Assembly: GCA_012523975.1 (NCBI GenBank)
Contig: JAAYSF010000050.1
Location: forward strand, 21,497 to 85,496
DNA from: Veillonellaceae bacterium
Lineage (GTDB): Bacteria; Bacillota; Negativicutes; JAAYSF01
Direction: 5' to 3'
Length of the DNA stretch: 64,000 bases
The notes under the pieces are model-generated. The model worked only from the letters and a program-made list of their open reading frames with translations. It did not search any database and was not told where the DNA came from. Numbering within the stretch: position 1 is the first letter of the stretch; the number at the start of each line of letters is the position of its first letter. Positions 1 through 11,444 of the stretch are shown here, piece after piece. A program made the position numbers and the translations under genes.

Positions 1-173
1 CGATAAGGGTACGAAAAAACGAGAATAACAAAACTATGCTTTTTCGTACATAAACCATGGTGCTTTAATGGCCTTTTCTGGAAGACTGGGCCTAGACTTT
101 TTTTGTTACTTTTTGGGGCAATGCCAAAAGTAACTCCCTATACATAATTAACATAAATAATGGAAAAGATAAA

Positions 174-956
174 ATGCCGCGAGAGCGGCGAGGAGGATAT
201 TATATGGCAGAATCTAGTGAGATTATCATAGGCCGCAATAGTGTGGCAGAAGCCTTAAAGAGCGGGCGGTCAATAAATAAATTATTTGTGGCAAAGGGGC
301 AGCGCCAGGGCTCGGTAAAAACGCTCATCGGTGAGGCGCGCGAGCTTGGATTGGTAGTGCAAGAAGTCGACTCGGCAAAACTTGACGAACTGGCCGGCAA
401 TAGCCGGCATCAGGGTATAGTAGCTATGGTGGCGCCTATCACCTACGTTGAAGTTGAAGATATTTTAGCAGCAGCGGCTGCCAAAAATGAGCCGCCGTTT
501 ATTGTAATCCTTGATGAATTGGAAGATCCCCATAATGTTGGTGCTATACTGCGCAGTGCTGATGCTGCCGGTGTACATGGCGTTCTTCTGCCAAAACGCC
601 GAAGCTGTCCGATTTCGGCTACGGTGGCTAAAACCTCGGCCGGTGCTGTTGAATATGTGCCGATTGCCAGAATCGGCAATATCACTCAGACAATTAAGCA
701 GCTCAAGGCTGCCGGTTTATGGATTGTCGGTGCTGATATGGATGGCGCAAAAGAGTATTATGATACCGATTTGACAGGTCCAGTCGCTGTAATAATTGGC
801 AGTGAAGGAAAAGGTATGGGGCGGCTCATTAAGGAGCAATGCGACTTTATAGTGCGAATTCCAATGAGAGGCCAGATAAACTCATTAAACGCTTCAGTAG
901 CATGTTCACTATTATTGTACGAAATCTTGAGGCAACGGGAGCTGAAGACTAGGTGA
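174..956 (+). CDS. rlmB: 23S rRNA (guanosine-2'-O)-methyltransferase, SpoU/TrmH family (RlmB/YacO-like)
   Basis: 260-aa ORF with an N-terminal substrate-binding region (IIGRNSVAEAL) and SpoU motifs (LDELEDPHNVGAILRSA, IIGSEGKGM, SLNASVA). It sits upstream of yacP-sigH, as B. subtilis yacO does. The start may be ATG 204. Confidence 0.85.
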   Translation: MPRERRGGYYMAESSEIIIGRNSVAEALKSGRSINKLFVAKGQRQGSVKTLIGEARELGLVVQEVDSAKLDELAGNSRHQGIVAMVAPITYVEVEDILAAAAAKNEPPFIVILDELEDPHNVGAILRSADAAGVHGVLLPKRRSCPISATVAKTSAGAVEYVPIARIGNITQTIKQLKAAGLWIVGADMDGAKEYYDTDLTGPVAVIIGSEGKGMGRLIKEQCDFIVRIPMRGQINSLNASVACSLLLYEILRQRELKTR

Positions 957-2302
957 ACAAACGGTGGCTGCGTACCGTGGCAGCCTTAGCGATACTAGCA
1001 TCTCTGACGGGCGGTTATGCTTTAACGAAGCCGCTTTTTGGGGACAGAGTATACGCTGGGGTAGCCTTAGAAGGAGTAGAACTTGGCGGTCGGGGCAAAG
1101 AAGAAGTTAAACAAATTCTGGCTGTTTGGAATAAGCAGCAGCAGAATAAGCAAATTACCGTTTACTATGGCGATACAATTTTTAAAGTTGACGCGCAGAG
1201 TATTGAATTTACCATCGATGTTGATGGTACCCTTGAGGAAGTGTGGGGAGTCGGCAGACGCGGTACACTCCTTGAACGGATAAAAAATATTCACGCAGCG
1301 CTTAATCAGGGGTATCGCATCCCCCTGCGTGTCAGCTATAATGAGAGTAAATTGGATAATTTGGTAGATGTATGGCGTGATGAAATTGACCGACCGGCTA
1401 AGAACGCAGCTCTCAGTATTGTTACTGGCGGTATAATTCCCCAGGAACAAGGCCGGAAACTTGATATAGAAGGTCTTCGCCCTCTTGTTTTACAGGCGCT
1501 TAAACGGCCTGAGGTTAATAATGTTCCCCTGCCGGTAACGCTCGTTTATCCGTCCATAACGGTAAATGATGTAGCGCGAACGGGAATTAAGGAACTTCTC
1601 GGCAGTTATACAACTGCTTTTAATACCAAGGAAAGTAATCGAACGGCAAATATAAAACTAGCTGCATGGAAAATTAACGGGCATATAGTTTATCCTGGCG
1701 AGACTTTTTCCTTTAATGAAATAGTTGGGCCGCGGGAAAAAGACTATGGGTTTAAGGAAGCTATGGAATTTGTCGACGGTGAACTGGTTCCAGGCATTGG
1801 CGGGGGAGTCTGCCAAGTATCTTCAACCATTTATAATGCCGTACTCTTGGCTAACCTAAATGTTATTGAGCGCTATAATCATTCCAAGCCGCTTGGTTAT
1901 GTCCCGCTCGGACGCGACGCCACTGTTGTTTATGGCGCGCTTGACTTTAAATTCTCCAATAATACTGATAAGCCTATCATGGTAATGGCTGAGGTTGAGG
2001 GTAATAAATTGCATGTGGGTATATTTGGCCAAACCCGCCTGCCGGAAAGTATCGAAATATTATCGGCCAACAAACAGGTTATTCCCCCGGCCGTTGTCAA
2101 ACAGCCAGATGCTACCTTGTTTTTAGGTGAAACAAAAGTGGACAAGCAAGGGAAACCTGGCTATGAGATAACAACTATCAGAGTAGTTCGTCAGGGCGGC
2201 CAGGAAATAAGACGGGAAGTATTGTCAAAGGATCGCTATCTGCCTGACAATACCATAATTAAGGTTGGCAACAAATTGCCGCCGTTTGCTGTTAATAAAT
2301 GA
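953..2302 (+). CDS. VanW-family protein with N-terminal membrane anchor and C-terminal G5-like domain (YoaR-like)
   Basis: 449-aa ORF. The GTG start overlaps the rlmB stop (GTGA). It has a hydrophobic N-terminus, a VanW-like core (GETFSFNEIVGPR...GGGVCQVSSTIYNA) and a G5-like tail (KQGKPGYEITTIRVV). Confidence 0.7.
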   Translation: MNKRWLRTVAALAILASLTGGYALTKPLFGDRVYAGVALEGVELGGRGKEEVKQILAVWNKQQQNKQITVYYGDTIFKVDAQSIEFTIDVDGTLEEVWGVGRRGTLLERIKNIHAALNQGYRIPLRVSYNESKLDNLVDVWRDEIDRPAKNAALSIVTGGIIPQEQGRKLDIEGLRPLVLQALKRPEVNNVPLPVTLVYPSITVNDVARTGIKELLGSYTTAFNTKESNRTANIKLAAWKINGHIVYPGETFSFNEIVGPREKDYGFKEAMEFVDGELVPGIGGGVCQVSSTIYNAVLLANLNVIERYNHSKPLGYVPLGRDATVVYGALDFKFSNNTDKPIMVMAEVEGNKLHVGIFGQTRLPESIEILSANKQVIPPAVVKQPDATLFLGETKVDKQGKPGYEITTIRVVRQGGQEIRREVLSKDRYLPDNTIIKVGNKLPPFAVNK

Positions 2303-2317
2303 AGTACTGATTGAAGA

Positions 2318-2854
2318 ATGGGAGAGCGCAATATGGGTAAAGACAAAGAAGCCCTGCTTGTTGACGGGTATAATGTTATAAACGCCTGGCCTGAGCTTAT
2401 GGTGCTTAATGATCTTGAACATTCCCGCGATAAGCTAATAGATATTATGGCTAACTATGGTTCATATCATGGTTATAATGTTTTGATCGTTTTTGATGCG
2501 CATGGTGTGTCCGGGGCTGTCACCGAGCAGCATATTTATAATGACGTAAATGTAGTTTTTACCGGTGAAGGTGAGACTGCTGATAGTTATATTGAAAGAA
2601 CAGCCTACAACCTGGTTCGCCAGGGTGAGAGGGTCTATGTGGTGACGTCTGATTGGGCTGAACAGCTGGTAATATTGGGGGCGGGGGCTTTTCGGATTCC
2701 AGCGCGGGAACTAATCTGCGATGTGAAACGGGTTAACAAACTAGTACAGGAAAGGTTTGCCGAGTCGGCCTTGAAATCTCGGCGTCATGAACTGGGAAAC
2801 CGCTTAAACAGTGAGGTCGCTAAACGCTTGGACGACCTCCGGCGCGGACGTTAG
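2318..2854 (+). CDS. yacP: NYN-domain ribonuclease-like protein (YacP/Rae1 family)
   Basis: 178-aa ORF with LLVDGYNVINAW...VIVFDAH...VVFTGEGETADSYIE...VVTSD, typical of YacP. Conserved position directly upstream of sigH. The start may be ATG 2333. Confidence 0.75.
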   Translation: MGERNMGKDKEALLVDGYNVINAWPELMVLNDLEHSRDKLIDIMANYGSYHGYNVLIVFDAHGVSGAVTEQHIYNDVNVVFTGEGETADSYIERTAYNLVRQGERVYVVTSDWAEQLVILGAGAFRIPARELICDVKRVNKLVQERFAESALKSRRHELGNRLNSEVAKRLDDLRRGR

Positions 2855-2867
2855 GAAAGAAGTTGGG

Positions 2868-2897
2868 CTTGACTAAGTAAAGGGGGGTAGGGTATAA
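2868..2897 (+). promoter_or_regulatory. putative sigma-A type promoter upstream of sigH
   Basis: TTGACT (2868-2873), an 18-nt spacer, then TATAAT (2892-2897). Confidence 0.4.
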
Positions 2898-2997
2898 TTT
2901 GCTTGAATGAAGCATGTACCCGTTATTTTTTAGGCACTAATTAGCTTTTAGTGCATTTTCTTTTTCTTAGTGTAATTTGGAAAGTGGGGGAGATGCG

Positions 2998-3726
2998 ATG
3001 CGGGTTAATACTCAATGCGCACTGTACAGTTCTTTTGAGAATATGACTGATGAAGAAATAGTTGCTGATGCCAAAGATAACAACAATACAGTCGCACTGG
3101 ATTATCTTATTAACAAGTACCGCAACTTCGTTCGAGCTAAAGCCAGATCATATTTTTTAATTGGTGCCGACCGTGAGGATATCATTCAAGAAGGCATGAT
3201 TGGATTATATAAAGCGATCAGGGATTTTCGGAACGATAAACTCTCGTCTTTTAGAGCTTTCGCGGAGTTATGCGTAACCAGGCAGATTATTACGGCTATA
3301 AAGACAGCGACCAGGCAAAAGCATATTCCTTTGAACTCATATGTTTCATTAAATAAGCCGATATATGATGAAGATTCTGACCGTACCCTATTAGATGTGC
3401 TGTCAGGCTCTAAAATTACCGATCCGGAGGAACTTGTAATCAGCCGGGAAGAGTTTATCGATATCGAAGAAAAGATGGGGCAGATTCTAAGCGACCTTGA
3501 ATGGAAGGTACTCATGGCCTATCTTGATGGTAAGTCGTATCAAGAGATAGCTATTGAGCTTAAACGACATGTTAAATCAATTGATAATGCTTTACAGCGG
3601 GTTAAGCGAAAGCTTGAGCGCTACCTTGACAATCGTGGTGAGGAAACTGCCGGTAGTTGTACTAAGAGCATAAATACTAAAGAACTGCAAATGGGATTTA
3701 GTGAATACCATATCGACGAAGACTAG
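2998..3726 (+). CDS. sigH: RNA polymerase sporulation sigma factor SigH
   Basis: LDYLINKYRNFVRAKARSYFLIGADREDIIQEGMIGLYKAIRDF is near-identical to B. subtilis Spo0H. ATG 2998 lies 7 nt after the GTGGGGGA ribosome-binding site. The ORF track extends it to TTG 2977. Confidence 0.9.
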   Translation: MRVNTQCALYSSFENMTDEEIVADAKDNNNTVALDYLINKYRNFVRAKARSYFLIGADREDIIQEGMIGLYKAIRDFRNDKLSSFRAFAELCVTRQIITAIKTATRQKHIPLNSYVSLNKPIYDEDSDRTLLDVLSGSKITDPEELVISREEFIDIEEKMGQILSDLEWKVLMAYLDGKSYQEIAIELKRHVKSIDNALQRVKRKLERYLDNRGEETAGSCTKSINTKELQMGFSEYHIDED

Positions 3727-3738
3727 TTATACAAAAAT

Positions 3739-3763
3739 GACATCCAAGCGGGTGTCTTTTTTT
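3739..3763 (+). terminator. intrinsic terminator after sigH
   Basis: GACATCC/GGGTGTC stem (one G-U pair), AAGC loop, then T7. Confidence 0.7.
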
Positions 3764-3809
3764 GTAATCTTAGATGTATTGAGAAAATGTGATTTTGAGG
3801 TGAATATAG

Positions 3810-4898
3810 ATGAACAAAATCAAGCGTATCGGCGTTCTAACGGGCGGGGGCGATTGTCCGGGTTTAAACGCTGTTATCCGAGCAGCAGCTCGTACGGCGC
3901 TCGGTTATGGTATCAAAGTAACGGGGATTAGGAATGGCTTTGGCGGGCTTGTTGAGAATCAGATGGTTGAATTAACTTTAGCTCATGTTTCGGGCATCTT
4001 GCCAAGAGGCGGCACTATACTGGGAACAACTAATCGGGATAATCCATTCAGCTATCGGGTAACAGAAAACGGACAAACCACTTATCGCGACATGTCAGGG
4101 CAAGCGCTGCAGAATCTTAAAGCGGCAAAGATAGATGCTTTGGTAGTCATCGGTGGCGACGGTACGCTTAAGATAGGTGCTGAGTTTGGCGATTTAGGTT
4201 TTCCGGTAGTTGCTGTTCCTAAAACAATTGATAATGACATAGCCGGTACTGAGCGGACGTTTGGTTTTGACACAGCCGTATCAATAGCTACCGAGGCTTT
4301 AGACCGCTTACATACAACAGCAGAATCTCACCACCGGGTCATGATCTTAGAAGTTATGGGCCGCTATGCCGGGTGGATTGCCATTCATTCGGGGTTGGCC
4401 GGCGGAGCTGACTGCATTTTAATTCCTGAGATTCCGTACGACATTTCAGCAGTGCTGGCTAAAATTCAACAACGTAAAGAACAAGGTAAACTTTTTAGCA
4501 TCATTGTAGTGGCCGAAGGGGCTAAACCTGTCGGCGGAGAGTTGGTTGGAACAGCTGCTGCTACCGGAAGTAGCGAGAAAATTCGTCTAGGCGGTATTGG
4601 CGAGAAACTGGCTAAGGAAATAGAGATTCTTGGCAATGTTGAAACGAGATGCACTGTCTTGGGCCACCTTCAGCGCGGCGGCAGCCCGACAGCCTTTGAC
4701 CGGGTTCTAGCTACCCGGTACGGGACAGCGGTAATTGAATGTTTACTGCAAGGCAAAAGTGGACATATGGTAGCGCTTGAGAAAAACCATATTATTAGTC
4801 TGCCGTTCCGCCAAGTTGCTGGTAAGGCGAGTAATGTGCCAATAGACGGTGAACTTGTAAAGGCGGGGCGTCTAATTGGTATTTGCTTTGGGGACTAA
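3810..4898 (+). CDS. pfkA: ATP-dependent 6-phosphofructokinase
   Basis: GVLTGGGDCPGLNAVIR, VIGGDGTL (the Gly at the ATP/PPi discriminating position) and PKTIDNDI motifs. Confidence 0.88.
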   Translation: MNKIKRIGVLTGGGDCPGLNAVIRAAARTALGYGIKVTGIRNGFGGLVENQMVELTLAHVSGILPRGGTILGTTNRDNPFSYRVTENGQTTYRDMSGQALQNLKAAKIDALVVIGGDGTLKIGAEFGDLGFPVVAVPKTIDNDIAGTERTFGFDTAVSIATEALDRLHTTAESHHRVMILEVMGRYAGWIAIHSGLAGGADCILIPEIPYDISAVLAKIQQRKEQGKLFSIIVVAEGAKPVGGELVGTAAATGSSEKIRLGGIGEKLAKEIEILGNVETRCTVLGHLQRGGSPTAFDRVLATRYGTAVIECLLQGKSGHMVALEKNHIISLPFRQVAGKASNVPIDGELVKAGRLIGICFGD

Positions 4899-5029
4899 CA
4901 TATTTCAGACTAATATTGCATAGGGTTGAATAGTTTTAACTATAAGGAACACTTGCATAGTATGCCGGCACCGGATAATACCATAGGCTAGGGGAATAAT
5001 AGGCCTAACGACGGTATGGGGGATTAGCG

Positions 5030-5734
5030 GTGCAGACGCTTGGCATTACGGTGTTTCACATTATTGTTACAATGATTGTTCTGCTGGCTATGTCGCTCCT
5101 AATGGGTAAGCGACATGTTGGCGAACTTACCCTACTGGACTTAATTGTTTCGATAACTATTGGCACGGTTGCCGGTGCTGGGATTGTTGACCCAAGCATT
5201 GATTTAGTCACAGTAGTTATTAGTATCGTAATCCTGGGTTTTGCTCAATATATTATAAGCTGGGTTACAATAAAGGACCGTAAATTACAGCGCAAAATCA
5301 TGCACGAACCTACTGTGCTTATTGAGAATGGCGTGATAATTAAGGCCAATCTGCAAAAAGTAAGGTTGCCGCTTGAAAGTGTGCTGGGCCTTTTACGTGA
5401 AAAGGAGATATTTGATATAACCGAAGTAGAACTGGCCATATTAGAGCCCCATGGTAAGCTAAGTGTTCTCAAAAAGGCTAAATTTAAGCCGCTGAATGCT
5501 TCGCAGGTCAATCTTGCTGTTCCTTCGAATAAAATCTTAACGCCTGTAATAATCGAAGGTGAATTACAAACGAAAAACCTCGAACAAATGGGATTTTCAG
5601 CCTCTCAGATTGAAGAGTTTGGTAAGCAGTACCAAGAGATACTCGCCAATGTGTTTGTAGCTTTTATGGATCAGGATCGTAAGTTGTACGTTTTTAACCA
5701 AGACGCGAAGGAAAAGGGGATTTTCTGCCATTAG
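5030..5734 (+). CDS. DUF421 (YetF-family) membrane protein
   Basis: 234-aa ORF with three N-terminal hydrophobic segments, then a YetF-like soluble domain (VLIENGVIIKANLQKVRL...LREKEIFDITEVELAILEPHGKLSVLKK). Confidence 0.7.
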   Translation: MQTLGITVFHIIVTMIVLLAMSLLMGKRHVGELTLLDLIVSITIGTVAGAGIVDPSIDLVTVVISIVILGFAQYIISWVTIKDRKLQRKIMHEPTVLIENGVIIKANLQKVRLPLESVLGLLREKEIFDITEVELAILEPHGKLSVLKKAKFKPLNASQVNLAVPSNKILTPVIIEGELQTKNLEQMGFSASQIEEFGKQYQEILANVFVAFMDQDRKLYVFNQDAKEKGIFCH

Positions 5735-5789
5735 TTTAAATGCAGTATATATAATGGGGCTTTTGCCGATTCTTAGTGGATTTAAATTG

Positions 5790-5817
5790 TTGAAATTAGC
5801 ATTAATTGGTGTATAAT
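5790..5817 (+). promoter_or_regulatory. putative sigma-A type promoter upstream of uppP
   Basis: TTGAAA (5790-5795), a 16-nt spacer, then TATAAT (5812-5817). Confidence 0.4.
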
Positions 5818-5855
5818 GAGACGTGCATGCTTGGAACTAACTACAAAGGTGGGGA

Positions 5856-6656
5856 ATGATGGACCAGAATATTATTGCAGTGATTATCGGCATTGTAGAG
5901 GGCTTGACCGAGTTTTTGCCAATTTCTTCGACCGGACATATGATTCTAGTCGGGTCGCTATTAGATTTTGAAGGTGAAGTTGCCAGTGTGTTTCAGGTGT
6001 TTATTCAACTGGGCGCTATTTTATCAGTGTTTATTTATTATCGTGAAAAGTTTATGACCATGCTGAGCCCGCGCCGAAGCCGTTACAGCGGCGGTTTATC
6101 GCTTATACATATTGCTGCCGGCATAGTTCCGGTAGCAGGGGTTGGCTTTTTATTGCATAGTCTGATTAAGAACTATCTATTCTCGTCATTCACTGTTATT
6201 ATCGGCTTGGTGCTAGGTGGTTTGCTCATGCTGGTAGCAGAGAAATTTGCCACTCGTATAACTGCGCGGACAGTTGACGATATCACACTAAAACAAGCCT
6301 TTTTCGTAGGCTTATTTCAAATTCTTTCGCTGTGGCCGGGTTTTTCCCGTTCGGGCTCGACGATTGCCGGTGGACTATTTTTAGGCATGAGCAGAACAGC
6401 AGCTGCGGAGTTTTCTTTTATAATAGCGGTGCCGTTAATGCTGCTAGCTTGCATATATGATTTGCTCAAAGTGTTACATAAACTGTCGATTGCCGATTTA
6501 GAGATGTTTGCGATTGGCTTTATAGTATCGTTTATTGTTGCCTATGTTTCAATTGTGTGGTTTCTACGGTTTCTTAATAACTCGACACTGGCCTCCTTTG
6601 CCTACTACAGATTTATTTTGGCAGCATTCTCGTATTATTATTTCTTCCTGAGGTAA
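5856..6656 (+). CDS. uppP: undecaprenyl-diphosphate phosphatase
   Basis: 266-aa polytopic ORF with BacA/UppP motifs (GLTEFLPISSTGHM, PGFSRSGSTI). Confidence 0.9.
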   Translation: MMDQNIIAVIIGIVEGLTEFLPISSTGHMILVGSLLDFEGEVASVFQVFIQLGAILSVFIYYREKFMTMLSPRRSRYSGGLSLIHIAAGIVPVAGVGFLLHSLIKNYLFSSFTVIIGLVLGGLLMLVAEKFATRITARTVDDITLKQAFFVGLFQILSLWPGFSRSGSTIAGGLFLGMSRTAAAEFSFIIAVPLMLLACIYDLLKVLHKLSIADLEMFAIGFIVSFIVAYVSIVWFLRFLNNSTLASFAYYRFILAAFSYYYFFLR

Positions 6657-6680
6657 ACAATAAGGATATTTTAATTCGGT

Positions 6681-6724
6681 AAAACAGGTACGCAAAGGCG
6701 GTCGTTGCGTACCTGTTTTATTTC
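6681..6724 (+). terminator. intrinsic terminator after uppP
   Basis: 15-bp stem AAAACAGGTACGCAA/TTGCGTACCTGTTTT followed by a T-rich tail. Confidence 0.75.
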
Positions 6725-6835
6725 CGCCGGTTAGTAGTCGTTTACATATATTACAAGTGTCTTTCGCTTTACAAGTCTAAAATTCTGTGCTAGTATTATG
6801 TATTGTGACTAGGAATTAAATCTGTCGCCAAAAAT

Positions 6836-6920
6836 GGAGGGATTCCCGAGTGGTTAAAGGGAGCAGACTGTAAATCTGCCGGCTCTGCCTTCGAAGGTTC
6901 GAATCCTTCTCCCTCCACCA
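6836..6920 (+). tRNA. tRNA-Tyr (GUA), copy 1
   Basis: Read by hand: acceptor GGAGGGA/TCCCTCC, anticodon loop CTGTAAA, long variable arm, T-arm GGTTCGAATCC, encoded CCA. Confidence 0.9.
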
Positions 6921-6981
6921 GTTTTTTCAAGCAGTAGGTATGGTGAACTATTCAACTAGTGCCACCAGACCGATGGCTGAA

Positions 6982-7085
6982 GATAAATGTTCAGATGCTA
7001 GGCGGAAGCGAGGAGGCGCAGCGCGGCGTACTGGAAGTACGTTAGCAAGCCCCCGGAGCGACAACGACGCAGATGAGCGTTTAGC
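6982..7085 (+). ncRNA. unclassified structured element, copy A (AGAUGCUAGGC/GCAGAUG family)
   Basis: Closing helix 6982-6991/7076-7085. Conserved boxes at 6993-7003 and 7069-7075. Central hairpin CGTACT-GGA-AGTACG at 7027-7041. Confidence 0.5.
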
Positions 7086-7100
7086 TTCTGACATCTATAT

Positions 7101-7176
7101 CGCGGGGTGGAGCAGCTGGCAGCTCGTCGGGCTCATAACCCGAAGGTCACAGGTTCAAATCCTGTCCCCGCAACCA
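7101..7176 (+). tRNA. initiator tRNA-fMet (CAU), copy 1
   Basis: CGCGGGG...CCCCGCAACCA with a C1xA72 mismatch. Three G-C pairs in the anticodon stem (GGGCTCATAACCC). Confidence 0.9.
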
Positions 7177-7206
7177 ATCTAATAGTAATAACTTATTAAA
7201 AAGTTA

Positions 7207-7235
7207 TTGACATAAAAGATTCAATGTTATATAAT
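7207..7235 (+). promoter_or_regulatory. consensus sigma-A promoter inside the tRNA array
   Basis: TTGACA (7207-7212), a 17-nt spacer, then TATAAT (7230-7235), about 30 nt upstream of tRNA-Thr. Confidence 0.6.
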
Positions 7236-7264
7236 TAGATTCGTCACTGAAACAAGCTTAAAAT

Positions 7265-7340
7265 GCTGGCTTAGCTCAATTGGTAGAGCAGCTGACTTGT
7301 AATCAGCAGGTTGGGGGTTCAATTCCTCTAGCCAGCTCCA
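7265..7340 (+). tRNA. tRNA-Thr (UGU)
   Basis: GCTGGCTTAGCTCAATTGGTAGAGC..., anticodon loop CTTGTAA, encoded CCA. Confidence 0.88.
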
Positions 7341-7343
7341 TAT

Positions 7344-7428
7344 GGAGGGATTCCCGAGTGGTTAAAGGGAGCAGACTGTAAATCTGCCGGCTCTGCCTTC
7401 GAAGGTTCGAATCCTTCTCCCTCCACCA
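7344..7428 (+). tRNA. tRNA-Tyr (GUA), copy 2
   Basis: Sequence identical to 6836-6920. Confidence 0.9.
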
Positions 7429-7486
7429 TTTTGTTTCAGAATGATATTGGTGGATGATTGACTAATGCCACCAAGCCAATGGCTGG

Positions 7487-7593
7487 ATAGAAATGACTAG
7501 ATGCTAGGCACGACGAGTACCGTAGCGGAGGCGTACTGGGAAGTACGTCGAGCAACGGAACGCAGGAGTAACAACGCAGATGGTCGTTTATAT
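7487..7593 (+). ncRNA. unclassified structured element, copy B
   Basis: Closing helix 7487-7497/7583-7593. Boxes at 7499-7509 and 7576-7582. Hairpin CGTACT-GGGA-AGTACG at 7532-7547. Confidence 0.5.
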
Positions 7594-7607
7594 ACAGACA
7601 TCTATAT

Positions 7608-7683
7608 CGCGGGGTGGAGCAGCTGGCAGCTCGTCGGGCTCATAACCCGAAGGTCACAGGTTCAAATCCTGTCCCCGCAACCA
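7608..7683 (+). tRNA. initiator tRNA-fMet (CAU), copy 2
   Basis: Sequence identical to 7101-7176. Confidence 0.9.
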
Positions 7684-7756
7684 AGTAATTAAAGCGAAAG
7701 CATTAAAATAGATTTTAAGTTGCGCTGGCTTATATTGGCACAAGGCCGCAAACGGA

Positions 7757-7862
7757 TTAGTGGTGTGCAGATGCTAGGCGCGACGAGGATCGTAGCGGAG
7801 ACGTAATGGAATTACGTCGAGCAACGAACCGCAGGAGCAACAACGCAGATGTGCGCCAATAA
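7757..7862 (+). ncRNA. unclassified structured element, copy C
   Basis: Closing helix 7757-7768/7851-7862, with a sequence unrelated to copies A and B. Boxes at 7769-7779 and 7845-7851. Hairpin GACGTAAT-GGA-ATTACGTC at 7800-7818 carries a compensatory C-G to A-U change. Confidence 0.5.
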
Positions 7863-7878
7863 GCTGGTTGCCTGACGT

Positions 7879-7954
7879 GCTGGTGTAGCTCAGTCGGTAG
7901 AGCGTATCCTTGGTAAGGATAAGGTCACCGGTTCAATCCCGGTCATCAGCTCCA
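7879..7954 (+). tRNA. tRNA-Thr (GGU)
   Basis: GCTGGTGTAGCTCAGTCGGTAGAGC..., anticodon loop TTGGTAA, encoded CCA. Confidence 0.88.
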
Positions 7955-7965
7955 CAATACTATAT

Positions 7966-8042
7966 GGCGGCGTAGCTCAGTTGGCTAGAGCATGCGGTTC
8001 ATACCCGCAGTGTCCGGGGTTCAAATCCCTGCGCCGCCACCA
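7966..8042 (+). tRNA. elongator tRNA-Met (CAU)
   Basis: GGCGGCGTAGCTCAGTTGGCTAGAGC..., anticodon loop TTCATAC, fully paired acceptor stem, encoded CCA. It resembles Bacillus elongator tRNA-Met. A lysidine-modified tRNA-Ile2 cannot be strictly excluded. Confidence 0.8.
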
Positions 8043-8163
8043 AATTAAGAAATATTCCTCGCTATATGCGAGGTTTTTTGTATTTTCAGCAGGAGAATTA
8101 AATTGTGTGATAGAATTTAATTTTCTGACAGTTAGTATGCATCAAGAGGGAGCTGAAAGTAAA

Positions 8164-9366
8164 ATGGCAAAAAAGAAGTTTGAGAGAAACAAGCCACACG
8201 TTAATATTGGTACAATAGGCCATGTTGACCATGGTAAGACTTCACTTACAGCAGCTATTACGCTTACGCTTTCTAAAATTGGCGGCGCGCAGTTTATGGC
8301 CTATGATCAAATTGACAGGGCCCCTGAGGAAAAAGAACGCGGGATAACCATTAATACTTCCCATGTAGAGTATGAGACGCCTAATCGTCATTATGCTCAT
8401 GTAGACTGCCCAGGCCATGCTGACTATGTAAAAAACATGATTACCGGTGCAGCCCAGATGGACGGAGCTATTTTAGTGGTAAGCGCTGCTGATGGCCCGA
8501 TGCCGCAGACGCGTGAGCATATATTGCTGTCCCGTCAGGTTGGTGTTCCGGCTATGGTCGTATTCTTAAATAAAGCTGACTTGGTTGATGATCCGGAGCT
8601 TATGGAACTTGTTGAAATGGAAGTTCGTGAACTTTTATCCAGTTATGAGTTTCCAGGTGACGATATTCCGGTAGTTTCCGGCTCTGCAGTTAAGGCACTG
8701 GAGTGCGGCTGTGCGAAGGCTGAGTGTGAATGGTGCGGAAAAATCCATGAACTGATGGAACATGTAGACGCTTATATTCCTACGCCTGAGCGGGCTACTG
8801 ATAAGCCTTTCCTGATGCCGGTCGAAGACGTATTTACAATTACTGGCCGGGGTACTGTTGCCACCGGACGTGTAGAGCGCGGCGCGATAAAAGTCGGTGA
8901 TACTATTGAGATTGTAGGGATGGCTGAGAAACCCAGATCGACAGTCGTAACTGGGGTTGAAATGTTCCGGAAACTTTTAGATCAAGCGGTAGCCGGCGAT
9001 AATATCGGCGCTTTGTTGCGTGGCGTTGACCGGAAGGAAATTGAACGCGGCCAAGTACTGGCCAAGCCGGCCAGTATTAAACCACATACTAAATTTAAGG
9101 CCGAAGTTTATGTTTTGACTAAAGAAGAAGGTGGTCGCCACACACCGTTCTTTTCTAACTATCGTCCGCAGTTTTATTTCCGGACAACCGATGTTACCGG
9201 TGTGGTAAATCTACCTGAGGGCGTTGAAATGTGCATGCCTGGAGATAATATCCAAATGTATATCGAACTTATTACGCCAATTGCGATTGAAGAAGGCTTG
9301 CGCTTTGCTATTCGTGAAGGCGGACGTACTGTCGGTGCTGGTGTTGTAACTTCAATAACAGTTTAA
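8164..9366 (+). CDS. tuf: elongation factor Tu, paralog 1 (tufB-like context, downstream of the tRNA array)
   Basis: 400 aa starting [26 protein letters not shown]. The ORF-track ORF (7981) is over-extended through tRNA-Met. ATG 8164 gives the canonical N-terminus. Confidence 0.95.
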
Positions 9367-9371
9367 AATAT

Positions 9372-9406
9372 AGGCCCCTAACTTTTGCAAGTTAGGGGCC
9401 TATTTA
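9372..9406 (+). terminator. intrinsic terminator after tuf paralog 1
   Basis: 11-bp stem AGGCCCCTAAC/GTTAGGGGCCT. The U-tract (TATTT) is short. Confidence 0.6.
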
Positions 9407-9600
9407 GTAAAATTGTGAATCTTGGAGGTAGTATAAAAAACAGCATCACTGGATATATGTATATAAGTAGGACAAGGCTTCGACTTAAGTTTTACAGCAT
9501 GCCTGGATACGTGGTATTGACATGCCGTTATAAGTGTGCTAAATTGTATTAGTGACATTTTGAAGTGTTGTCATATTTAGTGGTAAGAGAGGTGCAAAGG

Positions 9601-9750
9601 ATGCGCAATGCCGTGACATTGGCCTGTACTGAATGCAAACAACGCAATTATCAGTCCAATAAGAACAAAAAAAATGACCCGGATAGAATTGAACTAAGCA
9701 AGTACTGCAAATTTTGCAAAAAACATACTTTACACAAAGAAACAAAATAA
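9601..9750 (+). CDS. rpmG: 50S ribosomal protein L33 (Zn-ribbon form)
   Basis: [17 protein letters not shown]...[17 protein letters not shown] 9601 follows the GAGGTG ribosome-binding site. The ORF track starts it too early. Confidence 0.9.
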
Positions 9751-9779
9751 TTTATAATAAATTTTGTATTGACATAAGT

Positions 9780-9855
9780 AGGGGTGTAGCTCAATTGGTA
9801 GAGTAGCGGTCTCCAAAACCGTTGGTTGCGGGTTCGATTCCTGCCGCCCCTGCCA
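9780..9855 (+). tRNA. tRNA-Trp (CCA)
   Basis: AGGGGTGTAGCTCAATTGGTAGAGT..., anticodon loop CTCCAAA, T-arm GGTTCGATTCC, encoded CCA. Confidence 0.88.
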
Positions 9856-9908
9856 GAAAGCTTTGTGTTAAATAATGATTTGGCAGTACAAAACGGGGAT
9901 GTGAGAAA

Positions 9909-10124
9909 ATGGCTGCCCAAGAGACGGCTGTTCAAACAAGCGTTTCACGCTGGAAAAAGTTTTTGCGTGAAGTTAGAGCTGAACTTAAAAAAGTATCTTG
10001 GCCAAATAAGAAAGAACTACTTTCCTATACAGGGATAGTTTTTGTCTCTGTAGTGGTTGTTGGTGCACTGATTTGGATTATTGATACTGCTTTTACTGAG
10101 GCGCTTAAAGGGCTTATTAAGTAA
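9909..10124 (+). CDS. secE: preprotein translocase subunit SecE
   Basis: 71 aa with KFLREVRAELKKVSWPNKKEL followed by a single TM helix. Conserved position before nusG. Confidence 0.88.
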   Translation: MAAQETAVQTSVSRWKKFLREVRAELKKVSWPNKKELLSYTGIVFVSVVVVGALIWIIDTAFTEALKGLIK

Positions 10125-10165
10125 TCTAAGGGGGTGGGGGACGTACCTGGACGTCCCTTGAGACA

Positions 10166-10696
10166 ATGGAATCCGAAAAAAAATGGTATGTAATCCATAC
10201 ATATTCGGGATATGAAAATAAGGTTAAAGCCAACCTTGAGCGGAAGGTTCACTCCATGAATATGGAGAATGAAGTTTTCCGGGTACTTGTGCCTATGGAA
10301 GATGAGGTGGAAGTCAAGGACGGCAAGAAGAAAGTAACCAAGAAGAAAGTATTCCCGGGTTATGTATTGGTTGAAATGATTGTTAATGACAGGTCTTGGT
10401 ATGTTGTTCGCAACACACCAGGAGTAACAGGTTTTGTTGGCTCAGGTACTAAGCCTATCCCACTAACTAGCGCTGAAGTTAAGCACATCCTTAAATCGAT
10501 GGGAATGGAAGAAACTAAGCCGAAACTTGATATCAAAGTCGGTCAGCCGGTGAAGATTAATTCCGGTGCATTTGAGAATTGGACGGCGACTGTCCTTGAA
10601 ATTCATTCTGATCGTAACAAGCTAAAGGTGCTTGTTAATTTGTTTGGTCGCGAGACTCCTGTCGAGTTAGATTTTTCTCAAGTAGAAAAAATTTAA
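10166..10696 (+). CDS. nusG: transcription termination/antitermination factor NusG
   Basis: KKWYVIHTYSGYENKV... NGN domain and a C-terminal KOW domain (VKINSGAFENWTATV). Confidence 0.93.
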   Translation: MESEKKWYVIHTYSGYENKVKANLERKVHSMNMENEVFRVLVPMEDEVEVKDGKKKVTKKKVFPGYVLVEMIVNDRSWYVVRNTPGVTGFVGSGTKPIPLTSAEVKHILKSMGMEETKPKLDIKVGQPVKINSGAFENWTATVLEIHSDRNKLKVLVNLFGRETPVELDFSQVEKI

Positions 10697-11166: not shown

Positions 11167-11212
11167 TTAGTGCCTTTAAATAAGGCCGAAGCTAATTAGT
11201 GACGATTGGCTG

Positions 11213-11391
11213 GAAACTGTTCAAAAGCTGCCAGATGCTAGGCGCAATGAGCACGCGCGCGAAGTCGTACTGAAAGTACGTCGCAGCAAGCGAGCGCAGT
11301 GGTAAATGCGAAATCCTTGGCACTTTAGTGCCTTAGAATTTCGGCTTACCCCTTGCGGGTGCGATGCAGATGGTAGGTTTTCAACAGGTTC
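11213..11391 (+). ncRNA. unclassified structured element, copy D (expanded)
   Basis: 20-bp closing helix 11213-11232/11372-11391. Boxes at 11233-11243 and 11366-11372. Hairpin CGTAC-TGAAA-GTACG at 11266-11280. An extra insert of about 60 nt carries the hairpin GGCAC-TTTA-GTGCC. Confidence 0.5.
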
Positions 11392-11395
11392 TGAA

Positions 11396-11422
11396 GTGGG
11401 AGGAATTTCCGTTATCTACCAC
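11396..11422 (+). promoter_or_regulatory. possible L1 autoregulatory site (23S rRNA L1-stalk mimic)
   Basis: GUGGGAGG...CUACCAC lies just 5' of the rplA Shine-Dalgarno sequence. It resembles the GGUGGGAGGC...AUACCACCC strands of the 23S L1 stalk as I recall them from E. coli. Confidence 0.3.
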
Positions 11423-11444
11423 ATTTAACTAGGAGGATTTAAAC

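Follow-up and report, generated by a model that had tools for sequence, protein, structure and literature searches.

The CAGAUG-box hairpin, a candidate mobile structured repeat in tRNA and ribosomal protein operon spacers of a Veillonellaceae genome and in other phyla

Structured intergenic repeats such as REP, ERIC and Correia elements have been studied well in few bacterial groups, and they are usually lineage-specific. REP elements, with their BIME and REPIN arrangements, are extragenic palindromes near stop codons that occur singly, in tandem or inverted, spread as a structured single strand and are linked to RAYT transposases. ERIC/IRU elements are imperfect palindromes of about 127 nt, present in few to hundreds of copies across related genomes of Enterobacteriaceae and Vibrionaceae, with internally inserted long forms, copies at orthologous sites and orientation-dependent effects on mRNA, and Correia hairpins can be cleaved by RNase III. 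Within stable-RNA operons, rtT RNA is released by tRNA processing from a local tandem repeat of one operon, not from a dispersed family, and rRNA intervening sequences are sporadic and dispensable. Here we analyse a window, namely a 64-kb stretch of DNA (64,000 nt; contig JAAYSF010000050.1, positions 21,497 to 85,496) from a Veillonellaceae bacterium, in which three tRNA spacers and the rplK-rplA spacer hold copies of an irregular hairpin that we name the CAGAUG-box hairpin. The family is non-coding, multi-copy, without sequence kin in Rfam and undescribed, and we cautiously favour the reading that it is a new family of mobile structured repeats, of the kind of REP, ERIC and the miniature inverted-repeat transposable elements (MITEs), which is selected as a single strand and is a passive passenger in the window.

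The repeat and its fold

Seven tRNA genes (order Tyr, Met, Thr, Tyr, Met, Thr, Met; ARAGORN) lie at 6836-8042, and three of their spacers are long, with 180 nt (6921-7100), 179 nt (7429-7607) and 195 nt (7684-7878). The first-pass annotation, which had been made from the letters of the window, reported in each of them a (C/U)AGATGCTAGGC box, a GCAGATG box, a central CGTACT/AGTACG hairpin (CGTAAT/ATTACG in copy C) and an AGCAA box, and all of these were recovered, with exact AGATGCTAGGC matches starting at 6993, 7499 and 7769. The closing helix of copy A (GATAAATGTT at 6982-6991 with AGCGTTTAGC at 7076-7085) is paired at nine of ten positions, and the quoted helices were confirmed base by base, including the inner pairs, which are U-A and U.G in copy A but C-G and A-U in copy B. 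A fourth copy, which had been named without further description, is real and lies between rplK and rplA; AGATGCTAGGC occurs exactly there as well, at 11233, and these four hits in the window compare with about one expected when one mismatch is allowed. Compared with dinucleotide shuffles, the folds of the three long spacers reach z = -3.8, -4.0 and -2.6.

What had been missed is that the two boxes pair with each other (5'-CAGAUG-3'/3'-GUAGAC-5', giving C-G, A-U, G.A, A.G, U-A and G-C), and the closing helix therefore continues through a tandem G.A into UGC/GCA; the two CAGAUG boxes are at the same time a 6-nt direct repeat. A covariance model built from 117 copies finds exactly four copies in the window, all on the forward strand (Table 1), and each forms a hairpin of about 130-190 nt. 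The extra domain of copy D is homologous to that of copies in three other loci (L004, L019 and L020), and the accessory hairpin that precedes copies A and B is kept between their two spacers and seems to travel with the copy A subfamily.

The consensus is a long rod. At its base stands a helix of 20-25 bp, free in sequence apart from a conserved mismatch or two, purine-purine or C.C; above it come the CAGAUG/CAGAUG duplex with its tandem G.A, then UGC/GCA and an internal loop UAG(G)/(C)AAC; and the top is made of two covarying helices with GA-rich loops between them and an apical hairpin, usually GCGUAC/GUACGC, whose stem covaries in the copies from Dormibacterota, Bdellovibrionales and the candidate phyla radiation (CPR). 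The sole part common to all subfamilies is the invariant base module, CAGAUGC(U/A)AGGCG on the 5' strand and CAAC(N)(N)CGCAGAUG on the 3' strand. In the model-based alignment 87.6% of cells are standard pairs, as against 30-38% when the partners are slid by 1-3 columns, changes on both sides occur in 41 of the 45 pairs, and none of 500 shuffles reaches the observed values. The earlier statement that the helices are kept by compensatory change thus stands for the fold as a whole, with the proviso that part of the difference among copies A, B and C is one between subfamilies.

Further subfamilies carry an extra domain on the 3' side (copy D, L004, L019, L020) or on the 5' side (L040, L066, L011), are 84-nt 'mini' forms with a truncated top, or, at L121, bear a short top on a 50-bp helix. 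Two observations stand beside these. In Pelosinus (e.g. L108 7440-7494, L033, L114) at least nine copies have an additional 45-nt upstream module, a hairpin GUGUGUUU..AAACACAC followed by ACAUUAAAAUUU, in which TAAAAT is present without a -35 element and which reads as a weak terminator on the other strand. In the Bacillota metagenome-assembled genome (MAG) OH_CDB_237, a TwoAYGGAY RNA (RF01731, 49.6 bits, gathering threshold 43) at 4885-5042 of L004, forward strand, adjoins a long-form copy.

A scan of species-representative genomes with the exact pattern AGATGCTAGGC-N30-50-AGCAA-N15-45-GCAGATG, for which about ten chance matches are expected, gave at least 120 loci. Among the matches listed, most belong to Sporomusaceae/'Selenomonadales' (Sporomusa malonica, S. 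silvacetica, S. rhizae, Pelosinus and several MAGs with many loci), and others to Saccharibacteria, Paceibacterota/Parcubacteria, Dormibacterota, a Bdellovibrionales scaffold, Tepidisphaeraceae and Thermodesulfobacteriota; four of those listed were judged by eye to be chance matches, and two 'Paludibaculum' contigs look like mis-binned Selenomonadales sequence. The covariance model finds 149 + 27 copies (about 176) in 121 loci, including tandem copies 3-6 nt apart, and so recovers many that the pattern missed. The repeat is therefore short, non-coding and present in many copies at unrelated loci, as is expected of a MITE, and some of these copies are near-identical. The clearest case is L121 (IMG/VR contig IMGVR_UViG_3300029587_000258), the sole match in the viral collection, where five 184-nt copies, 95-99% identical, occupy five consecutive intergenic regions in both orientations within 10.6 kb, which indicates recent proliferation. 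The genes of its first 10.6 kb (1-10636) are cellular, namely a class II aminoacyl-tRNA synthetase (ProRS), a Mur ligase, ClpC and two ABC transporters, and it is accordingly a host flank or a misclassified contig.

No described family accounts for the repeat. At gathering thresholds, Rfam 15 matches in the window only tRNAs, the L10 leader and S10-Clostridia, and nothing overlaps the elements even at E<=10, in agreement with the first-pass annotation, which had matched them to no known riboswitch, ribozyme, leader or REP family; in 18 related loci from six phyla, no Rfam match at gathering thresholds overlaps a repeat copy. Full-text literature searches by the box sequences returned unrelated primer matches only, and searches by topic nothing relevant. 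An origin from plasmids or phages was rejected, as blastn gave no match in PLSDB or INPHARED and the one IMG/VR contig is a bacterial chromosomal stretch.

Several known kinds of element were also set aside. An intrinsic or bidirectional terminator does not fit, for a terminator scan finds none at the elements and no U-run is present on either strand (T fraction 0.21-0.42). Integron attC sites have R'' (RYYYAAC) at the 5' end, R' (GTTRRRY) at the 3' end and a free interior; on inspection, 5' GTT and 3' AAC are found in some subfamilies only and the interior is conserved, not free. Neither the loops A and B of the hairpin ribozyme nor the kink-turn fits when compared by eye, and a small open reading frame (ORF) starting at the ATG of box 1 was rejected because the reading frames differ between copies.

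Strand, neighbours and turnover

Orientation was counted on our own ORF calls with a third-position GC filter. For the AGAUGCUAGGC strand, 67 copies have both flanking genes on the opposite strand and 21 have both on its own; a further 18 stand between convergent genes and 5 between divergent ones. All 11 CPR copies are antisense. The convergent gene often ends right at the element, its stop codon falling within -19 to +5 nt of the 3' model boundary in about 75 of 110 cases, and the distance from the same-strand upstream gene is spread over 5-270 nt. Stop-codon examples that were checked include FtsZ (in Saccharibacteria, L090, and in a Selenomonadales MAG, L034), RF1, S15, RNase Y and LysRS, and in S. 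malonica the gap between prfA and prmC, from the stop codon of the former to a point 21 nt short of the start of the latter, is taken up entirely by the complement of the element. The divergent gene begins closer than 50 nt to the element in about half of the antisense copies, which makes a dedicated promoter for the AGAUGCUAGGC strand unlikely there; such a promoter was rejected more generally, since the copies also have no common sigma-70-like motif. Outside Pelosinus, whose copies are mostly sense to their neighbours, unlike those of other groups, the sense copies sit mainly at three kinds of site: in tRNA operons (seven cases, with box 2 always 24-29 nt from the next tRNA), at six orthologous loci between the genes of the two transketolase subunits, and in the rplK-rplA spacer. 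A fixed orientation to replication was rejected on four complete genomes (about 8 versus 7 copies, with the origin assumed near position 1).

The strand itself leaves a mark on the basal helix. When the 24 nt that precede box 1 and the reverse-complemented 24 nt that follow box 2 were aligned under symmetric DNA scoring, transitions that give G.U pairs numbered 267 on the AGAUGCUAGGC strand and 121 on its complement, although these counts, like those of orientation, include related, non-independent copies and overstate their statistical weight. The excess, roughly twofold, has the same direction in each orientation class, among them antisense copies (104:48) and sense copies (45:14), and a model-based count and the CPR copies alone show the same trend. 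An artefact of covariance-model alignment was rejected because the symmetric arm-to-arm alignment of the DNA gives the same result, and a mutational cause was rejected by reasoning, for strand-biased deamination predicts the opposite sign in antisense copies. The conserved mismatches are, moreover, of the purine-purine type on the AGAUGCUAGGC strand, and some basal helices, too, contain tandem G.A. The wobble bias and these mismatches together suggest that the fold is selected or inherited on the single AGAUGCUAGGC strand, whichever way the neighbouring genes run, and hence a purely double-stranded DNA repeat would not be the whole story.

The history of the window copies was read from four syntenic relatives (L130-L133) with the gene order uppP, tRNA array, tuf, rpmG, tRNA-Trp, secE, nusG, rplKAJL and rpoBC; the window comes from an uncultured bacterium of the Sporomusaceae, whose ribosomal protein L1 is 88% identical to those of Sporomusaceae FL31, Thermosinus, Sporolituus and Methylomusa. 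Against four copies in the window, L130 has two and a solo stem, L131 a solo stem and a remnant, and L132 and L133 none. In L130 (L1 93% identical) one element lies upstream of tRNA-Thr(ggt) and a standard 132-nt element in the rplK-rplA spacer, whereas of its two Tyr-Met spacers the second has 19 nt and the first is a 98-nt 'solo' form, a basal helix around a single GCAGATG without the core. In L131 (L1 91%) the Tyr-Met spacers have 19 nt, a degraded remnant precedes tRNA-Thr, and the rplK-rplA spacer holds the solo hairpin GTTGCTCAAAAGCTGT-CAAATG-GTAGCTTTTCAGCAG. Nothing is found at any of the four sites in L132 and L133, where the spacers have 8-36 nt. Site by site, the place of copy B is empty in L130, L131 and L132 (16-19 nt), while that of copy C is filled in L130, L028, L030 and L082 and empty or degraded in L131-L133; the Tyr-Met spacer has only 13-24 nt in L028 and L082. 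These filled, solo and empty states among related genomes are the insertion polymorphism expected of a MITE, and retention at the same locus in close relatives, as expected of a functional RNA, was not seen at the window sites in L131-L133. Therefore, all four window copies appear dispensable and lineage-specific.

The solo forms, at two orthologous sites, have lost the core exactly between the two CAGATG repeats, and we infer that the loss occurred by replication slippage across a hairpin bounded by direct repeats. The opposite course, insertion of a core into pre-existing hairpins with a CAGATG loop, was rejected, as solo hairpins of this kind are not enriched over those with control hexamers; with no such enrichment elsewhere, the unit of spread seems to be the whole hairpin and not the core alone. 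The core of copy A is closer to the core at the copy C site of L130 than to that of copy C in the window, so copies seem to have been exchanged or replaced. As a separate observation, in L132, a relative without the repeat at the four sites, rplL is directly followed (8385-8410) by a hairpin (ggagagtacccCAGATGgggtactctcc) of 11 perfect base pairs whose loop is CAGAUG; this may be a common terminator stem, what is left of a solo form, or a site that a copy could target.

Mobile passenger or functional RNA

Based on these findings, we propose that the copied or selected unit would be the AGAUGCUAGGC strand in single-stranded form, as RNA or as DNA, and that the invariant base module may serve as the recognition site of a mobilising or binding protein. 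Copies that place the structured strand in an mRNA would be selected against, which would explain both the antisense excess and the restriction of sense copies outside Pelosinus mainly to tRNA operons and a few intercistronic sites. In the window, copies A-C would be transcribed within two tRNA operons and copy D within the rplKA mRNA; the enzymes that normally process tRNAs would most likely remove the spacer copies along with the spacers, as might RNase III, acting on the 20-bp basal helix, and the window copies would thus be dispensable passengers and not a required processing module.

A number of points weigh against mobility. Flanking duplications are not consistent: TTA stands on both sides of all three complete L121 copies, but no consistent duplication was found in the Pelosinus and OH_CDB_237 families, and AT-rich repeats blur the comparison of filled and empty sites. 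Among 909 ORFs flanking the sampled copies (8 kb around each), all-versus-all clustering found recurrent neighbours at orthologous loci only, and phmmer with an IS200 TnpA query found no match. The basal arms resemble terminal inverted repeats in that they pair, but they differ between genomes, and no inverted repeats shared with a parent element were seen; an internal module that is invariant across phyla between variable arms is more typical of a functional RNA than of a MITE. Copies at orthologous sites with compensatory changes (tktA-tktB, upstream of tRNA-Thr(ggt), and L009/L071) suggest local function or concerted evolution, and the non-independence of the strand counts belongs here as well.

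The first-pass annotation had argued for a functional RNA instead of a neutral spacer. Its argument is partly supported, in that the fold is real and covaries and no Rfam family matches. Constant orientation along the transcribed strand likewise applies to all window copies, which are co-transcribed in two tRNA operons and in rplKA, and fails family-wide, where either orientation occurs, an outcome that the first-pass annotation had itself named as refuting; with 67 antisense against 21 sense copies, tandem and near-identical copies and empty sites in relatives, an RNA of constant orientation that is dedicated to the tRNA array is not supported.

Among the alternatives that retain a function, the one that survives best, though still unlikely, is that the copies are genes of one family which encode a trans-acting small RNA or ribonucleoprotein: the AGAUGCUAGGC strand would be transcribed at many loci, most of all where it hitch-hikes in a tRNA operon, and trimming at the basal helix would leave a stable rod of about 90-130 nt with the base module bound by a conserved protein, as scaffold, sponge or substrate. 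It would account for the invariance of the internal-loop module across phyla amid covarying helices, for the GA-rich loops and tandem G.A pairs, which are typical of protein-binding RNA, for the wobble bias to the AGAUGCUAGGC strand even where the flanking genes run the other way, for the seven sense copies at a constant distance from the next tRNA in highly expressed tRNA operons, and for the optional expansion domains, such as many non-coding RNAs have. However, most copies are antisense to both neighbours, about half of them without room for a promoter, a common promoter-like motif is lacking, the complement is clearly inside an operon mRNA at prfA-prmC and at the CPR loci, close relatives have no copies, and copies with mutated boxes still proliferate in L121.

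We consider it improbable that the element is a cis-acting module for processing, stability or decoupling, e.g. an RNase III site, that its operon needs, as had been thought in the first-pass annotation. The four window copies are indeed co-transcribed with their hosts, the basal helix of about 20 bp (20-25 bp with internal loops, predicted) agrees with the roughly 20 bp of double-stranded RNA that RNase III needs, and sense copies are kept between transketolase subunits in at least six species and upstream of tRNA-Thr(ggt) in at least five genomes. The same tRNA array and rplK-rplA junction nevertheless work without the element in L131-L133, most family members are opposite to the mRNA, and the lack of a U-tract argues that the element is not a terminator. 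Another proposal, which we regard as a long shot, takes the base module as the handle of a new mobile or excisable element at the RNA level, either spread from highly transcribed 'master' copies in tRNA operons in the manner of short interspersed nuclear elements or an intervening RNA that is cut and rejoined at the symmetric site; if true, it would need a widely distributed host enzyme and would explain the occurrence in Negativicutes, CPR, Dormibacterota and others. Least probable is a self-processing or excisable RNA that spreads through RNA, in which the RNA itself or a dimeric endonuclease would cut out the core at the symmetric CAGAUG/CAGAUG and the ends would be joined again, with the solo hairpins as the DNA record of excision: the 6-nt direct repeats that bound the core and form a symmetric duplex, the precise core-less hairpins with one CAGATG/CAAATG at two orthologous sites, the concentration of conserved nucleotides in internal loops as in small ribozymes, and an antisense excess, as expected if sense RNA is cut, all agree with it, but no Rfam ribozyme family resembles the elements, solo hairpins are not enriched and replication slippage explains them more simply.

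In the window, the predicted promoters and the terminator-like hairpin (Table 1) define two operons, Tyr-(A)-Met and Thr-Tyr-(B)-Met-(C)-Thr-Met, from which it follows that copies A-C must be transcribed and read through. The perfect consensus promoter lies in the gap between the first tRNA-Met and tRNA-Thr (7176-7265), preceded by an AU-rich hairpin AATAACTT..AAGTTATT; its position implies that the seven tRNAs are two transcription units, derived from duplication of a Tyr-Met segment, and this duplication is also seen in L130 and L131 but not in L132.

The position of copy D between rplK and rplA, together with a likeness of box 1 to the sequence of the L1 stalk, had raised the idea of a ribosomal-protein operator. 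This was rejected, because the repeat is a multi-copy family, copy D is absent in relatives and a separate conserved leader of rplA lies downstream. That leader, GTGGGAGGAAnTTCCGTTATCnACCACAT followed by a Shine-Dalgarno sequence at 11397-11430, directly upstream of rplA, is shared by the window and the four syntenic relatives alike, with or without a repeat nearby; it resembles the L1-binding helix 77/78 region of 23S rRNA (GGUGGGAGG ... AAAUACCAC), matched no Rfam family in the Rfam 15 scan of the window, and is probably an L1 autoregulatory operator (candidate). A protein search with the 234-aa L1 of the window returned one 391-aa database protein (P0001) that outscores the query itself (591 bits), possibly a gene call running from upstream sequence into rplA.

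Table 1. Copies of the CAGAUG-box hairpin, their parts and neighbouring features in the window
Feature	Position	Strand	Description
Copy A	6969-7099	+	Full hairpin, tRNA-Tyr/tRNA-Met spacer; covariance model 104.5 bits, E 2.4e-24
Copy A, box 1	6992-7003	+	CAGATGCTAGGC
Copy A, apical hairpin	7026-7042	+	
Copy A, AGCAA	7044-7048	+	
Copy A, box 2	7069-7075	+	GCAGATG
Copy B	7475-7606	+	Full element, second tRNA-Tyr/tRNA-Met spacer; covariance model 99.7 bits
Copy B, box 1	7498-7509	+	TAGATGCTAGGC
Copy B, box 2	7577-7583	+	GCAGATG
Copy C	7745-7875	+	Full element, tRNA-Met/tRNA-Thr(ggt) spacer; covariance model 89.3 bits
Copy C, box 1	7768-7779	+	
Copy C, box 2	7845-7851	+	GCAGATG
Copy D	11209-11396	+	Long form, rplK-rplA spacer; covariance model 40.2 bits, E 5e-8
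Copy D, box 1	11232-11243	+	
Copy D, extra domain	~11306-11362	+	Two hairpins, ~57 nt
Copy D, box 2	11367-11373	+	
Accessory 5' hairpin before copy A	6941-6967	+	UGGUG...CACCA; predicted fold
Accessory 5' hairpin before copy B	7447-7474	+	UUGGUGG...CCACCAA; predicted fold
rplK	10741-11166		Gene upstream of copy D
rplA	11445-12149		Gene downstream of copy D
Promoter-like site	6768-6796	+	Upstream of first tRNA-Tyr; 9/12 match, TG extended; would drive Tyr-(A)-Met
Sigma-70 consensus TTGACA-17-TATAAT	7207-7235	+	12/12 match; would drive Thr-Tyr-(B)-Met-(C)-Thr-Met
Intrinsic-terminator-like hairpin and U-run	8057-8073	+	After last tRNA-Met; closes the operon holding copies B and C

Relation to described repeats

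On the reading of a mobile structured repeat, the long tRNA spacers and the long rplK-rplA spacer of the window are insertions and not operon-specific regulators. Three features set the family apart from known repeats, namely an invariant internal-loop module, freely covarying helices and an occurrence in at least five phyla, and together they imply a partner that is itself conserved, be it an enzyme that mobilises the repeat or a protein that binds it. In the genome-reduced CPR the copies sit directly on the stop codons of housekeeping genes. The family also lends itself to studying the spread of repeats of this kind and the reasons for their tolerance. Its interest rests mainly on the cross-phylum module and on the paradox of the strand. 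Because the family is missing from Rfam, its members could be mistaken for riboswitch-like or small-RNA candidates in genome scans, which the covariance model and the description given here should prevent.

Compared with described systems, the CAGAUG-box hairpin resembles REP/REPIN elements in being extragenic, near stop codons, in either orientation and at times in tandem. It differs in size and signature, the known REP unit being 20-40 nt, lineage-specific and marked by 5' GTAG, and the present element 130-190 nt with the invariant CAGAUGCUAGGCG / CAAC..CGCAGAUG; a RAYT/IS200-like gene stands next to the repeats in the REPIN-RAYT system, while in the 8 kb around each sampled copy none was seen here. 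With ERIC/IRU it shares occurrence in either orientation, long forms with insertions, variable copy number, some retention at orthologous sites and transcribed intergenic sites. By description it is set apart from ERIC in that the helix sequence is free and only the internal-loop module invariant, in its strong antisense bias and strand-specific wobble pattern, and in its hosts, which are not enterobacteria and vibrios but Sporomusaceae, CPR, Dormibacterota and others, thus several phyla.

Like Correia (NEMIS/CREE), RUP, BOX and bcr1-type MITEs, it is short, non-coding, multi-copy and co-transcribed and forms long hairpins, although those elements have conserved terminal inverted repeats and defined duplications, e.g. 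TA, whereas the termini here vary and TTA flanks are found in one genome. The 178-bp repeats of Escherichia coli tyrT, the source of rtT RNA, are likewise a repeated structured spacer tied to a tRNA-Tyr operon, but the Rfam rtT model does not match the elements. Finally, the RNase III stalks of rRNA and tRNA operons and the rRNA intervening sequences also place a long helix of flanking sequence inside a stable-RNA operon, in the way that copies A-C do in the window, while most copies of the CAGAUG-box hairpin are located outside such operons.

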